From the NCBI GenBank assembly GCA_963817955.1, contig CAWFQK010000004.1, forward strand, positions 864,001 to 928,000: DNA of 64,000 nt, in the 5' to 3' direction. Position numbers and translations under genes: made by a program. Below the pieces are notes generated by a model. The model did not search any database and was not told the origin of the DNA. It saw nothing but the letters and a program-made list of their open reading frames with translations. Positions 8,225 to 64,000 of this stretch are shown here, one piece after another. The first letter of the stretch is position 1; every line of letters starts with the position of its first letter. The DNA comes from an uncultured Gemmatimonadaceae bacterium. GTDB taxonomy: Bacteria; Gemmatimonadota; Gemmatimonadetes; Gemmatimonadales; Gemmatimonadaceae.

Positions 8225-9105
8225 CGCTGTCCGCTCGCGTCGTGGCGCAGGCCAAGGTCAACCTGCTCCTTCGCGTTCTCGCACGTGAAACGAGCGGCTA
8301 TCACTCCATCGAAACGGTATTTCTACGTCTCGACCTCGGCGACGACGTTTGCGTTCGGATCGTGAACGGACACACGCTCGATTGTGCAGGCCCTGCAATG
8401 CCCGCCGCGGGGCTTGGGCCGGCCCAGCAGAACCTGGCCTATCGCGCCGCCGCGACATACGCCGAGGCCACGGGATGGCCCAGTGGATTCGCCATAGAGA
8501 TCGAGAAGCGAATTCCCGTTGGCGGAGGACTGGGCGGCGGCAGCGCTGACGCTGGAGCCGTGCTCCGGGCGCTCGACGCACTGGCGCCGAATCCGCTCGG
8601 CACGCGCCTCGTGGAGCTCGCAACCACGCTCGGTGCCGATGTGCCGTTCATGGCGACCGACAGTCCCATGGCACTCGCGTGGGGTCGTGGGGAACGCATG
8701 CTTCCGCTACGCGCCCTCGAGCCACGGGCCGCCGTTCTCATTATCCCCGATTTCGCGATCAATACCGCCGAGGCGTATGGGTGGCTCGCGGCGGATCGGG
8801 GGTCGTACGTGCCGGCAGCGACGGTCATTGCGCCGGAGGCACTCGATACATGGGAGTCGATGGCCGGTCTCGCCACCAACGAATTCGAGCGCGTCGTTGC
8901 GCGGCGAAGGCCGGTGATCGCCGAACTCGTCGACGAACTCGAGGCCGCGGGCGCGTGTGTGGCCATGATGAGCGGCTCCGGCTCGACGGTTTTCGGGATA
9001 TTCGACTGCTTCCCGGACGTGCCCGCGATCGCGCGCACTTCGAGTCACACTAAGGTCCTGACAGGAACGAGCGATCGAGTTGTAAGAGTGGTGTTGGATC
9101 GGTAG
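8221..9105 (+). CDS. ispE: 4-diphosphocytidyl-2-C-methyl-D-erythritol kinase
   Basis: AKVNLLLRV, KRIPVGGGLGGGSADA, LGADVPF, MSGSGSTVFG. Confidence 0.96.
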   Translation: MTLSARVVAQAKVNLLLRVLARETSGYHSIETVFLRLDLGDDVCVRIVNGHTLDCAGPAMPAAGLGPAQQNLAYRAAATYAEATGWPSGFAIEIEKRIPVGGGLGGGSADAGAVLRALDALAPNPLGTRLVELATTLGADVPFMATDSPMALAWGRGERMLPLRALEPRAAVLIIPDFAINTAEAYGWLAADRGSYVPAATVIAPEALDTWESMAGLATNEFERVVARRRPVIAELVDELEAAGACVAMMSGSGSTVFGIFDCFPDVPAIARTSSHTKVLTGTSDRVVRVVLDR

Positions 9106-9119
9106 CTTTCAGGGCTTGC

Positions 9120-9190
9120 TGCCCCCTCGTCCAATGGCAGGACATCGGACTTTGGATCCGAGAATGGTGGTTCGAATCCACCGGGGGCAA
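9120..9190 (+). tRNA. tRNA-Gln (anticodon TTG)
   Basis: Acceptor TGCCCCC/GGGGGCA, anticodon arm TCGGA-CTTTGGA-TCCGA, T arm GGTGG-TTCGAAT-CCACC; CCA not encoded; classic ispE-tRNA-Gln-prs position. Confidence 0.95.
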
Positions 9191-9227
9191 CGTTCAACTC
9201 CTGCCTATCTCAGCAAGGCTTCGCATC

Positions 9228-10180
9228 ATGGATGGACTAGCGGTCCCGAGTCATGGCTTGAAGGTTTTGTCCGGCACTGCCAACCGTGCGCTTGCGGAGG
9301 AGATCGCCCGCCATCTCGGAGTCGACCTGTGCCGGGTCAATCTGGGTCGGTTCGCCGACGGGGAGATCTTGGTTCGCATCGACGAGAACGTTCGCGGCAA
9401 CGACGTGTTCATCGTGCAGCCCACGAACCCGCCGGCCGAGAACATCATGGAGCTCCTGCTCCTGATCGACGCGGCGCGCCGGGCCTCGGCGGCGCGAATC
9501 ACCTGCGTGATGCCGTACTACGGCTACGCCCGGCAGGACCGCAAGGACCAGCCACGCGTGGCGATCGGCGCCAAGCTCATGGCGAACATGATCAAGGCCG
9601 CTGGCGCGGATCGGGTGCTGGGGGTGGACTTCCACCAGCACCAGCTCCAGGGGTTCTTCGACGTACCCGTGGATCACCTGTATGCAATGCCGGTGTTCAC
9701 GGCGCACTATCGCAAGAAGCAGCTGCAGGATCTGGTGGTCGTCGCGCCCGATGTCGGTTCGGCGAAGATGGCGCGGGGGTTCGCGAAACGGCTGAACGGA
9801 TCGCTCGCGATCATCGACAAGCGCCGGCCTCAGCCGAACGTGTCGGAAGTGGTGAACGTGGTTGGTGAAGTCGAGGGACATGATTGTATCCTCGTCGACG
9901 ACATGATCGACACGGCCGGGACGGTGACGGAAGCGGCGCGGGCGCTGAAGGGACTGGGTGCCAAGGACATCTACGTCTGCGCGACGCACGCGCTGCTGTC
10001 GGGTCCCGCCGTGGAACGGTTGAACGAAGCGCCGATCAAGGAAGTCGCGGTGACGGACACGATCGCGATTCCCGAGGACCGGCGCCCGAAGAACTGTGTG
10101 TTCTGTCCGTCGGCGAGCTGCTGTCGAAAGCGATTCGCTTCACGCATAGCGAGCAGTCGGTGAGTTCGCTGTTCGATTGA
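9228..10180 (+). CDS. prs: Ribose-phosphate pyrophosphokinase (frameshift near 10094)
   Basis: RFADGEI, PYYGYARQDRK, VAPDVG, LVDDMIDTAGT; C-terminal VLSVGELLSKAI...SVSSLFD lies in another frame. Confidence 0.96.
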
Positions 10181-10192
10181 AAGTCTGTTGGA

Positions 10193-10256
10193 CCTCGCGC
10201 AATTCTCATGGTAGGGAGGACGCAGCCTCCCGAGAGTAGACGGGATTGGCGCGAGG
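10193..10256 (+). promoter_or_regulatory. Candidate L25 ribosomal-protein leader RNA (5S rRNA loop E mimic)
   Basis: Hairpin with outer stem CCTCGCGC/GCGCGAGG and AATTCT/GGGATT, internal loop ATGGTAG (10208-14) opposite CGAGAGTAG (10231-39), apical stem GGAGG/CCTCC; 40 nt upstream of rplY. Confidence 0.7.
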
Positions 10257-10295
10257 AGGCTGCGAAGTTTCTGTTATCATACTGGTATTTGCACA

Positions 10296-10952
10296 ATGGC
10301 ATCAGCATCACTGGACGCCACCGTCCGCGCCGACCGCGGCACGGGCGTCGCCCGCAAGATCCGCCAAGCCGGACAGGTTCCCGCCGTCATCTACGGCCAC
10401 GGACGCGAGCCGCAGTCGCTCACGATCAACGCACGCGAGACGAATCATCTGCTGTCGACCATCTCGGCGGCGAGCACCGTCGTCAATCTGAACGTCGACG
10501 GCAAGACGTGCCGCACCCTCATCCGCGAGATTCAGCGCCATCCGTTCAAGCGCCACCTGGTCCACGTCGATTTCCAGGAGCTCGTGGCTGGTGAGAAGGT
10601 AACGGTCAGCGTGCCGCTACGCTTCGTCGGCACGGCAGATGGCGTGCGGAACGGCGGCGGAGTGCTCGAAGAAACGATGCACAAGGTGCACATCAAGGTC
10701 GATCCGGCGCAGATGCCGGAGCACATCGATGTCGATGTCACCGATCTGACCATCGGCCACAGCCTTCACATTCGCAATCTTCCGCTGCCTGAAGGCATCT
10801 CGGTGCTCGACGATCCGAGTGCCACGGTGTGCGTCGTGACGGCGCCGAAGACGGTTGTGGAGACGCCGGTCCCGGGTGCCGAGGTCGAGCCGAGCACGGC
10901 CGAACCGGAGCTCATCCGCAAGCCGAAGCCTGAAGAGGGCGAGGCCAAGTAA
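10296..10952 (+). CDS. rplY: 50S ribosomal protein L25 (CTC-type, long form)
   Basis: GVARKIRQAGQVPAVIYGHG, REIQRHP, HVDF, C-terminal EPELI. Confidence 0.96.
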   Translation: MASASLDATVRADRGTGVARKIRQAGQVPAVIYGHGREPQSLTINARETNHLLSTISAASTVVNLNVDGKTCRTLIREIQRHPFKRHLVHVDFQELVAGEKVTVSVPLRFVGTADGVRNGGGVLEETMHKVHIKVDPAQMPEHIDVDVTDLTIGHSLHIRNLPLPEGISVLDDPSATVCVVTAPKTVVETPVPGAEVEPSTAEPELIRKPKPEEGEAK

Positions 10953-11020
10953 CTGCGTCAGTGCTCCATTTCCTGTTCGGGCGGCGCCGAGCATCTCCCG
11001 CGGCACGCGACGACGAGCCG

Positions 11021-11602
11021 ATGAAAGTCATAGTGGGACTCGGCAACCCGGGCAAGGAATACGAGCGTACACGTCACAACGTCGGTTGGTGGGTCGTCGA
11101 TCACCTCGCCGACGTTTGGCATTTCGGCGGCTGGCGCAAGGACGGCGAAGCGTACGTGAGCAACGGCACCGTGGGAAACGTGAAGGTGAGGCTGGTCAAA
11201 CCGCTCACGTTCATGAATCTCAGCGGGGCTGTGCTCAGGCCATACCTGCGCCGGCCCTTCTGGGCCGCCGCTACCGATCTCATGGTCGTCGTCGATGACG
11301 TCGCGCTCCCACTGGGTCGTTATCGCTTTCGAGCCAAGGGGAGTGCCGGCGGGCACAATGGATTGAAGAGCATCGAGGGCGCTCTCAAATCGCAGGAGTA
11401 TGCACGCCTGCGGATCGGGATCGCGCCCGAGGACCCTTCGCGCCGGGGCCAACTGAAGGACTACGTGCTCGACGACTTCGGCAAGCGGGACGCACAGACC
11501 GTTCGCGACCTGCTTCCCGCGCTGACCGAGGCCGTGGCTCTCTGGCTCACGGCTGGCATCGTGCCGGTTATGAATCGATTTACTGGAGAGGGTGCGGAGT
11601 GA
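11021..11602 (+). CDS. pth: Peptidyl-tRNA hydrolase
   Basis: IVGLGNPG, TRHNVG, KPLTFMNLSG, GGHNGLKSI, RLRIGI; alternative GTG start at 10961. Confidence 0.96.
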   Translation: MKVIVGLGNPGKEYERTRHNVGWWVVDHLADVWHFGGWRKDGEAYVSNGTVGNVKVRLVKPLTFMNLSGAVLRPYLRRPFWAAATDLMVVVDDVALPLGRYRFRAKGSAGGHNGLKSIEGALKSQEYARLRIGIAPEDPSRRGQLKDYVLDDFGKRDAQTVRDLLPALTEAVALWLTAGIVPVMNRFTGEGAE

Positions 11603-62478: not shown

Positions 62479-64000
62479 ATGCGGTTTTCCTCATCCCCAG
62501 ATCATTTCCCCGAGGCCGCCATTTCTCCGGAGACACCAGCTCGACCCGGCCCAGTGCCCCATGGCTCGGTGACCCACGTTACCCGGAAGATCCGGCGTGC
62601 CGCATTCGTTGGTGCGGCGGCGCTGATCGCCATTGCCGCAACCATGGCAGTGATGACCAGGGTACAGCGCTCGACACATTACTGGGTGCAACATGCCCGC
62701 GACGCGGCACGGCTAGCCCAGTTGACGGTGACTTTGCTCGACGAAGCCGACCAGGCCCACGAAGAAGGGCGGGAGCTCAGTGAGTCGAACGAGCCTGCGC
62801 CGCCGAATGAATCGGAAAGGCTCCTGCTGAGCGCGGTCGATTCTCTCGCACGGATAACGAGGACCCAAGAGCATCGCGCGCTCGCATTACGGTTTCGGGC
62901 CGCGGTTCTGCGATGGGAGAGTGTCGTCACACAGCCGATCCGCCCGAAGCAGAACGACGAGGCGGCGAGACTCCTCGCTGCGTTCTCCGCGGCGCGGAAC
63001 CTGGGCGACTCGCTCGTGCGCGCGGAGGATTCGGAGTTCGCGGATCGCCTGCAGGCGTCCGATGTGGAACACAGCGCCTCGTTGGCCGCGATTCTCCTCG
63101 AAGTGGCTTTCGTGCTGATCGTGCTTGGGCTGATGACAGCGCACATCACCCGACAGACCGAGGGCATCGAGCGGCAGACCGTCGAGCTGGCCGCGTCCGT
63201 GACCGACGCGACCGCGAACCAGCGCCGCGCCGAGGCGTTCGCTCGCCAGAAAGAACGAGTGACCGCTGTTCTCGACGCGGTCCTCGGATCCACGCCAATC
63301 GCCTTTGCATTCTTTGATGCCGACCTGCGCTTCTTGCGTGTGAACGCCAGTCTCGCTCAGCTGAACGGGCGTTCACCTGAGGAGCACGTTGGCTGCACCC
63401 TGCGCGACGTCGCACCGTGGATTGCCGATGAGGCCGAGCCGTACCTCGTGCAGACGCGCGCCACGCGCGAGCCTGTGGTCAACGTGCCAATCACCGAACG
63501 GCGGGACCATACGCGCGCGCGGCGATTCCTCACAAACTGGTATCCGATCCACACCGAAGACGGGGAGTTCCTCGGCGTCGGCGCGACAATGATGGACGTC
63601 ACCGAGCACGACCAGCTCATTGCGCAACTGCAGCAGGCACAGAAGATGGACGCCATCGGGCGACTCGCCGGCGGCATCACCCATGATTTCAACAACCTGC
63701 TCACGGTCATTCGCGCGAATGTGGACTTTGCCGACAAGAACCCAGACCTCCGGGAGAGTCGGCCCGAGCTCAATGAGATCCGCGCGGCCGTCGATCGCGC
63801 CACCTCACTGACGCGACAGCTCCTGGCGTTCAGCCGGCAGCAACCCGTGGAAGGGCTGCTCGTGAACCCCAACGCGGTCGTCGACGGAATGCGCCAGTTG
63901 CTGCTGCGACTCCTGAACGGCGGCCCTCAAATTCAGATCGACCTTTCGCCGGCGATACACCGCGTTCGCGTCGATCCGAGCCAGCTCGAGCAGGTCATTA
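62479..64000 (+). CDS. Membrane PAS sensor histidine kinase, partial (runs off right edge)
   Basis: Hand translation: two TM segments, PAS (AFFDADLRFLRVN), H-box QAQKMDAIGRLAGGITHDFNNLL, in frame with the ATG at 62479. Confidence 0.88.
   Translation, partial: MRFSSSPDHFPEAAISPETPARPGPVPHGSVTHVTRKIRRAAFVGAAALIAIAATMAVMTRVQRSTHYWVQHARDAARLAQLTVTLLDEADQAHEEGRELSESNEPAPPNESERLLLSAVDSLARITRTQEHRALALRFRAAVLRWESVVTQPIRPKQNDEAARLLAAFSAARNLGDSLVRAEDSEFADRLQASDVEHSASLAAILLEVAFVLIVLGLMTAHITRQTEGIERQTVELAASVTDATANQRRAEAFARQKERVTAVLDAVLGSTPIAFAFFDADLRFLRVNASLAQLNGRSPEEHVGCTLRDVAPWIADEAEPYLVQTRATREPVVNVPITERRDHTRARRFLTNWYPIHTEDGEFLGVGATMMDVTEHDQLIAQLQQAQKMDAIGRLAGGITHDFNNLLTVIRANVDFADKNPDLRESRPELNEIRAAVDRATSLTRQLLAFSRQQPVEGLLVNPNAVVDGMRQLLLRLLNGGPQIQIDLSPAIHRVRVDPSQLEQVI

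Follow-up and report, generated by a model that had tools for sequence, protein, structure and literature searches.

A candidate L25-binding leader with a copy of 5S rRNA loop E upstream of rplY in part of the Gemmatimonadaceae

Known L25 operators and the rplY locus

It is a long-standing idea that ribosomal proteins regulate their own genes through copies, in the mRNA, of the rRNA sites to which they bind. The operators of L20, L1 and S8 are leaders that mimic the rRNA site of the encoded protein, and in these systems surplus protein represses its own synthesis through the copy. The general principle is also laid out in the available excerpts of a study on the Escherichia coli rplY leader (PMC4408793), the leader that contains the only L25 operator studied so far. 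In these excerpts, competition with the 30S subunit was shown to be the means of control (Aseev, Bylinkina & Boni 2015, PMC4408793), the operator hairpin, HII, carries a conserved GUCG loop and is unlike loop E according to the authors, and the question of mimicry was left open (PMC4408793). A strong (canonical) Shine-Dalgarno (SD) sequence abolishes control, as described in the accessible parts of two papers (PMC4408793, PMC10931766), and the features of the gammaproteobacterial leader are reported there only from species with a short, one-domain L25 (PMC10931766). A listing of ribosomal protein leaders (r-leaders), in the portion available, contains the enterobacterial L25 leader as the only one for this protein (Eckert & Weinberg 2020, PMC7247131). 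Our full-text literature search on L25 and rplY leaders, and on rplY together with Gemmatimonad*, returned only the gammaproteobacterial leader, and subscription papers or supplements may hold more; in the literature searched, neither a loop E mimic for L25 nor a regulator of a two-domain L25 was found. The initial annotation of the DNA studied here had named L25 leaders from Gammaproteobacteria and none of the present kind in this lineage, and the searched papers, as far as their available text extends, agree with it.

Here we analysed a window of 64,000 nucleotides, the whole stretch of DNA under study, from an uncultured Gemmatimonadaceae bacterium. The plus-strand neighbourhood of interest comprises ispE, a tRNA gene, prs, rplY and pth. 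The rplY product matched the bL25 chains of many solved ribosomes and 1feu, and the gene is, judged by its sequence, a bona fide bL25 gene. The tRNA gene (9120-9190, plus strand, 63.6 bits), located between ispE and prs, has the anticodon loop CUUUGGA, by reading of which it is tRNA-Gln(UUG). The upstream gene prs is split into two overlapping frames (ORFs 9228..10163 and 9884..10180), and its conserved C-terminus, ...SVGELLSKAIRFTHSEQSVSSLFD, falls in the second one; this frame break, at about 10090-10100, points to a one-base indel, an assembly error or a real frameshift.

The spacer between prs and rplY holds a hairpin at 10193-10256, which could be read directly in the sequence at the position first proposed (Table 1). 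The gap between the prs stop codon and the outer stem is 12 nt. At the other end, the rplY ATG at 10296 lies 39 nt past the 3′ end of the hairpin, matching the distance of about 40 nt given before, and 31 nt past the end of a conserved tail. The proposal that this hairpin constitutes the element held in part: the hairpin stood, an inner stem (P1b) was added on the basis of RNAfold and comparison, and the GGCUGCG tail and the AU-rich spacer also belong to the element.

Table 1. Features of the candidate leader and its flanking genes, in positions of the window
Feature	Positions	Strand	Details
prs, ribose-phosphate pyrophosphokinase, upstream gene	9228..10180	+	Pfam domains; stop 10178-10180
P1a 5′ strand, outer stem	10193..10200	+	CCUCGCGC; partner 10249-10256
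P1b 5′ strand AAUUCU, inner stem adjoining loop E mimic	10201..10206	+	partner 10242-10247 (RNAfold)
5S G72 equivalent	10207	+	C here, unpaired or mismatched
Loop E mimic 5′ strand AUGGUA (5S positions 73-78)	10208..10213	+	invariant in 31/31 protein-found leaders
P2 5′ strand GGGAGG, helix IV mimic	10214..10219	+	G10214 = 5S G79 equivalent; partner 10226-10231
Hairpin loop ACGCAG	10220..10225	+	
P2 3′ strand CCUCCC	10226..10231	+	C10231 = 5S C97 equivalent
Loop E mimic 3′ strand GAGAGU (5S positions 98-103)	10232..10237	+	invariant in 31/31 protein-found leaders
Unpaired 3′-side bulge AGAC	10238..10241	+	replaces 5S A104 and helix V
P1b 3′ strand GGGAUU	10242..10247	+	G10248 bulged
P1a 3′ strand	10249..10256	+	GCGCGAGG; partner 10193-10200
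Conserved tail GGCUGCG	10258..10264	+	complementary to 10221-10227 (loop and first P2 3′-strand bases)
AU-rich spacer	10265..10295	+	weak SD-like GGU at 10284-10286
rplY, two-domain (CTC-type) bL25, 218 aa	10296..10952	+	Pfam Ribosomal_L25p 3.7e-27, Ribosomal_TL5_C 6.1e-29

Compared with the gammaproteobacterial rplY leader, as described in the excerpts available, the Gemmatimonadaceae leader precedes the same gene, has the same presumed ligand and displays the same layout, in which an irregular hairpin is followed by an AU-rich stretch and a weak SD. In contrast, the two RNAs are unrelated. The loop is ACGCAG in one and GUCG in the other, and an explicit copy of loop E is present here and not in the E. 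coli HII hairpin. The gammaproteobacterial leader carries a GAGA(G) SD-like element before the start codon, whereas a GAGAG is found here about 60 nt upstream, within a strand of the loop E copy. The proteins differ as well, with a two-domain L25 (L25p and TL5_C, 218 aa) here and the short one-domain L25 in the gammaproteobacterial case. With the L20, L1 and S8 operators, the candidate leader would share the logic but neither the protein nor the motif.

Likeness to 5S rRNA loop E and conservation of the fold

We aligned the leader with positions 66-110 of E. coli K-12 rrfH. AUGGUAG (5S positions 73-79) and CGAGAGUAG (97-105) were identical in the two RNAs, which bears out the near-verbatim copy of loop E noted at the outset. 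The available excerpts of two papers identify these 5S positions as the loop E bound by L25 (PMC4408793, PMC1976436), and the numbering agrees with the residues named there for loop E and loop D (PMC1976436). The shared strands AUGGUA / GAGAGUAG also match the genome's own 5S rRNA at positions 73-78 and 98-105, a comparison that had been proposed with the original observation. The two 5S genes of this genome read AUGGUAC ... GGAGAGUAGG, so that the closing pair is C-G in them and G-C in the leader; their 5S rRNA found no match in E. coli genomes by blastn. Within the 4,533,955 bases of the genome, the pattern ATGGTA-N8-40-GAGAGTA occurred three times, namely in the two 5S genes and in the leader, and a reversed control pattern occurred once.

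The leader thus shares these bases of loop E and helix IV, the site of L25/CTC/TL5 in 5S rRNA (RF00001; 1feu for the Thermus thermophilus protein), and both RNAs have a Watson-Crick helix on the helix IV side. In the leader, however, helix IV itself is replaced by an unrelated 6-bp helix with the ACGCAG loop, and the helix V-side half of loop E is uncopied: G72.A104, C71-G105 and C70-G106 are absent and, in their place, one pyrimidine faces a bulge of 3-4 nt that is followed by an unrelated stem. Across leaders, the G72-equivalent position varies (C/U/A/G) and forms a C.A mismatch in most of them, and in some it pairs with the base after a 3-nt bulge (U-A or C-G). The 3′-side bulge measures 3-4 nt (AGC+A, AGA+C, UGC) in 71 of 108 leaders and has other sizes in the remainder. 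The internal loop originally drawn, with AUGGUAG opposite 10231-39, therefore kept both of its strands but not its limits: G10214-C10231 is a Watson-Crick pair, and the bulge A10238-C10241 lies outside loop E. RF00001 gave no match to the spacer at E up to 10 and the three-arm fold of 5S rRNA was not found in it, and a covariance model built for the leader (R1) had no hits in the genome's own 5S genes. Likeness to the rRNA site of the encoded protein, a frequent though not obligatory property of r-leaders, is present here.

The folding energy of the single sequence was unremarkable (RNAfold, z = -1.01; an equally good or better fold in 35 of 200 shuffles), and the structural evidence is therefore comparative. 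When plain MAFFT alignment was combined with RNAalifold on 31 full leaders, only P2 was recovered and the outer stem was misaligned. This misalignment was overcome with register-matched seeds and a covariance model: alignment A3 contained 65 register-matched seeds and was gap-free at P2 and P1b, and in alignment A4, 100 of the 108 leaders were fitted to the model, the eight omitted being duplicates of a core that was kept. Covariation was tallied on 96 distinct sequences, in an alignment that, being fitted to the model, leans towards it. Results showed that 96.5% of cells were paired, compared with 77% in shuffles, that 8 of the 10 modelled pairs changed on both sides, and that none of 500 shuffles reached the covariation score, so that both helices flanking the loop covary in the test that the initial annotation had called for. 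P2 and P1b, however, adjoin invariant anchors, and pairing fell to 35-57% when the partner was slid by 1-3 columns.

P2 was paired in 100% of the 96 distinct sequences, and four of its six pairs changed on both sides. Its closing pair was G-U in 55 sequences, G-C in 35, A-U in 4 and C-G in 2, and other P2 pair types were A-U 62 / C-G 34 and G-C 85 / A-U 10. The commonest core of the P2 5′ strand is GGCGG, which indicates that the GGAGG seen here is not an SD sequence. All four modelled pairs of P1b were doubly changed, in 22-33 of the 96 distinct sequences. For the 45 leaders of the GGGCGG type, RNAalifold on a plain MAFFT alignment yielded a three-way junction made of P1a, an inserted hairpin, P1b and P2, in which the hairpin inserted on the 5′ strand showed 5-20 double changes per pair and the P1a-equivalent stem showed compensatory changes. 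The 5′ and 3′ flanks of the leaders, many of which are kin, formed duplexes averaging -18.6 kcal/mol with their own partner and -15.9 kcal/mol with the flanks of other leaders, and the own partner was the best one in only 7 of these 108 related leaders. A conserved secondary structure with covariation, as is characteristic of r-leaders, is thereby found, and RNAalifold predicts the same structure.

Distribution and placement before rplY

The protein-anchored sample consisted of this genome and 60 relatives; rplY was located in 59 of the 61, and the upstream DNA was read in these 59. The motif preceded rplY in 31 of them (29 of genus g1, this genome included, plus G032 and G034), and alignment of the spacers showed the loop nucleotides to be conserved in all 31 protein-found leaders, as the initial annotation had anticipated. 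The motif was found neither in four other genera of the same family nor in any of the 24 genomes from two other families of the order; these 28 genomes have short spacers, and 28 of 28 were negative both by regular expression and by model R1.

An exact-pattern scan over one genome per species (185,579 species), in which the named bases are invariant by construction, gave 106 loci. Among the 80 titles listed for these loci, 76 named Gemmatimonadaceae, Gemmatimonadales, Gemmatimonadetes/-ota or Gemmatimonas, three gave only 'bacterium' and one was a Burkholderiales bin. The contig of this last metagenome-assembled genome (MAG) (L139, JBBQNG010000466.1, 2169 bases) carries a Gemmatimonadaceae-type leader and the start of rplY, and has probably been mis-binned. 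After merging the scan with the protein set, we obtained 108 unique leaders, all of them before an L25-like reading frame (rplY), and all carriers are uncultured MAGs.

A looser pattern, made of ATGGTA, 18 free bases, GAGAGT and a nearby ATGKC with loop and tail unspecified, matched 69 of 401 family genomes. By reading of the listing, 66 of these matches are leaders and three (G327:C353:6889-6971, G293:C25:14677-14759 and G099:C20:53281-53375), which have neither the P2 helix nor the tail, were rejected as chance matches. The 66 leaders span 8 of 77 genera (g1, g3, g5, g29, g101, g102, g122 and g125), and, this genome excluded, 65 of the 70 genomes sampled from those eight genera are carriers. 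Of 151 genomes from 12 families across the phylum, model R1 was positive in six, which all belong to the Gemmatimonadaceae. There is one copy per genome. In the present one R1 found a single copy, and a further match at 63624-63659 (minus strand, 10.5 bits, E = 2) was discarded as a chance match that skips the whole of loop E and P2.

The distance from the start of the motif to the rplY ATG was 81-94 nt (sd 2.4, n = 94), whereas that from the prs stop codon to the motif ranged from 20 to 235 nt (sd 53.5, n = 97). Since the spacing is fixed to rplY and variable to prs, the element belongs to rplY, and it has the conserved position directly 5′ of a ribosomal protein gene that is expected of an r-leader. 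The spread after prs is accounted for by variable tandem and inverted repeats that occupy the relatives' spacers 5′ of the leader (L013, L024, L025, L030, L005 and L008), for instance, L013 has runs of AACCAGT, L024 and L025 have runs of GGTGGACC, and GGTAGGAC units form a long inverted repeat in L030. Just 5′ of P1a (10184-10190 here), 18 of 108 leaders have a GUAGG-like box, where shuffling predicts 5.9. The box is similar to the 5′ strand of the loop E mimic, and L011 has GATGGTAGGAC at this place; it is lineage-specific, occurring mostly in one genus, and is no general feature.

Rfam 15 gave no match to the spacer at the gathering score or at E up to 10, and none to the leaders in five other loci at E up to 1, where five sub-threshold hits fell outside the leader or on the coding flank. 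Rfam 15 therefore has no family for the element, which bears on its novelty as first suggested. As far as can be judged from comparison, the candidate leader forms a novel structural class within a known kind of regulator, confined to part of a single family of soil bacteria, all of them uncultured.

Proposed function and alternative readings

The last 30 nt before the rplY ATG have a G+C content of 33% here, compared with 65% in the window; across leaders they average 46%, and the structured part 66%. With the 16S tail of this genome (read from L174), the best pairing was -2.9 kcal/mol, in keeping with the initial annotation's remark that rplY has no clear SD. The average SD pairing was -4.5 kcal/mol in 104 carriers and -5.9 kcal/mol in the 28 leader-less relatives, a modest difference among genomes that are kin. 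RNAfold ensembles of the 104 leaders with P2 forced or forbidden left the accessibility of the SD and AUG unchanged (0.50 / 0.50 / 0.49), in a model that excludes non-canonical pairs and pseudoknots. A simple consensus scan of positions 9000-11100, which says nothing about the transcript start, detected neither a sigma-70-like promoter nor a terminator in the spacer, so the element could lie in a prs-rplY co-transcript; the same scan returned two terminator-like sites, both on the minus strand inside rplY.

The comparative evidence supports the candidate L25 autoregulatory leader put forward at the beginning. On the grounds of mimicry, conservation, covariation, fixed spacing to the start codon and a weak SD, we consider it probable that the element is a cis-acting leader of the rplY mRNA that would act as an operator for bL25. 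The hairpin would present a copy of 5S loop E and of the first helix IV pair, the natural site of L25, and L25 in excess of free 5S rRNA would bind to it. The bound, compact RNA would then lie at the 5′ edge of a landing zone of about 30 nt, AU-rich and with a weak SD, where the complex may out-compete or block the 30S subunit, and rplY translation would fall in an autogenous repression by molecular mimicry. Direct masking of the start site is excluded, since the structured part ends 39 nt before the ATG.

Binding of L25 alone leaves the invariance of the loop GCAG and of the tail CUGC unaccounted for. In the search with a free loop, the hairpin loop was NGCAG in 66 of 66 leaders by reading (ACGCAG in 60, AUGCAG in 4 and AAGCAG in 2), and in the search with no tail specified, CUGC was likewise read in the tail of all 66. 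Among the 108 unique leaders, the tail, 48-53 nt past the start of the motif, contains GCUGC in 106 and CUGCG in the other two. The GCAG of the loop is complementary to the CUGC of the tail, and in this genome the complementarity extends to 10 bp (10221-10230 with 10255-10264). The alternative helix, in which the hairpin loop and the P2 3′ strand would pair over 10 nt with the stretch across the end of P1a and the tail, would exclude both P2 and P1a; no more than 4-8 bp of it are retained in other genomes. The four core pairs are invariant on both sides, and loop-tail pairing is therefore without covariation support; next to them, loop position 2 and tail position 6 are mostly mismatched, and the sole hint of covariation is a C..A in L133 against a U..G in L140. 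The outer stem varies in length on its 5′ strand only, and the 3′ side between loop E and the tail does not vary. With about 13 pairs, the arm that loop E and P2 form above the bulge is similar in length to P1b plus P1a (12-15 pairs), so that folding back at the bulge would set the loop beside the tail. The tail CUGC probably pairs with the hairpin-loop GCAG, to judge from these invariant complementary bases, and such pairing may equally well be a tertiary contact made after folding back at the bulge or a competing alternative helix. A possible, if doubtful, extension is a protein-sensing RNA switch, in which fold-back would pair the GCAG loop with the CUGC tail and L25 binding would set the fold, thereby gating the AU-rich standby site.

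It is unlikely that the RNA binds L25 with an output other than translational repression by competition, for example a loop-tail toggle that alters mRNA decay or the processing of a prs-rplY co-transcript, an effect on transcription elongation, or retention of nascent L25 on its own mRNA. Outputs of this sort would suit the 39 nt between the structured part and the ATG, the modelled start-site accessibility, which is unaffected, and the conserved loop-tail complementarity, which is superfluous for simple operator models. They would also suit the 12 nt from the prs stop codon to P1a in this genome and the result that no promoter-like site was found between prs and the hairpin. However, no terminator-like U-tract follows the hairpin, the fixed spacing of 81-94 nt, the weak SD and the AU-rich stretch fit control of initiation, and the sole studied L25 operator acts on translation, according to the excerpts available (PMC4408793).

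We consider it quite unlikely that the element is an intergenic structured RNA with no link to L25, for example a stabiliser in the prs 3′-UTR, a processing site or a small RNA, whose likeness to loop E would reflect a common RNA motif or the binding of another protein. Loop E-type motifs recur in many RNAs, and this wide occurrence would be compatible with such an RNA, as would a start only 12 nt past the prs stop codon here, the uncopied helix V side of 5S rRNA and the unexceptional folding energy. Against this, the position is fixed to rplY rather than to prs, the bases of 5S positions 73-79 and 97-105 occur elsewhere in the genome only in the 5S genes, and 108 of 108 unique leaders precede rplY.

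A further reading, in which the ATG within AUGGUA opens a short upstream frame (MVGRTQPPES...) whose translation controls rplY, is highly improbable. The ATG is present and, by reading, that frame encodes the same residues with the commonest P2 variant (GGGCGG / CCGCCU), yet other P2 variants are non-synonymous and still paired, the changes in the spacing from the motif to GCUGC (48-53 nt) are not multiples of three, and the ATG is buried beside the stem with no SD preceding it. We rejected this frame because its length is unconserved across the 108 leaders, running from 10 to more than 66 codons, with no stop codon before the stretch ends in 46 of them. A decaying, functionless fragment of a 5S rRNA gene, which would explain the loop E bases held in common with 5S rRNA, deserves practically no credence and was rejected on the covariation, as neutral decay would not preserve pairing: the element is kept in eight genera with compensatory changes and fixed spacing, its P2 and loop do not resemble the helix IV and loop D seen in the 5S rRNA of this genome, and it has no match to the Rfam 5S model at E up to 10.

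The operator for bL25 that we favour bears on the mimicry question left open, in the excerpts available, for the E. coli operator: the Gemmatimonadaceae leader is a natural base-for-base copy and occurs with the widespread two-domain L25. It adds an RNA family that is missing from Rfam and offers a clean system in which to ask what portion of loop E is required by L25, as well as a way to see how a protein bound some 40 nt upstream may control initiation on a weak SD. If the switch reading is true, the leader would be more than a passive decoy, and the proteobacterial operator would serve the same purpose with an RNA of unrelated make-up. The presence of the leader in only 8 of the 77 sampled genera of one family gives a view on the origins of such operators.
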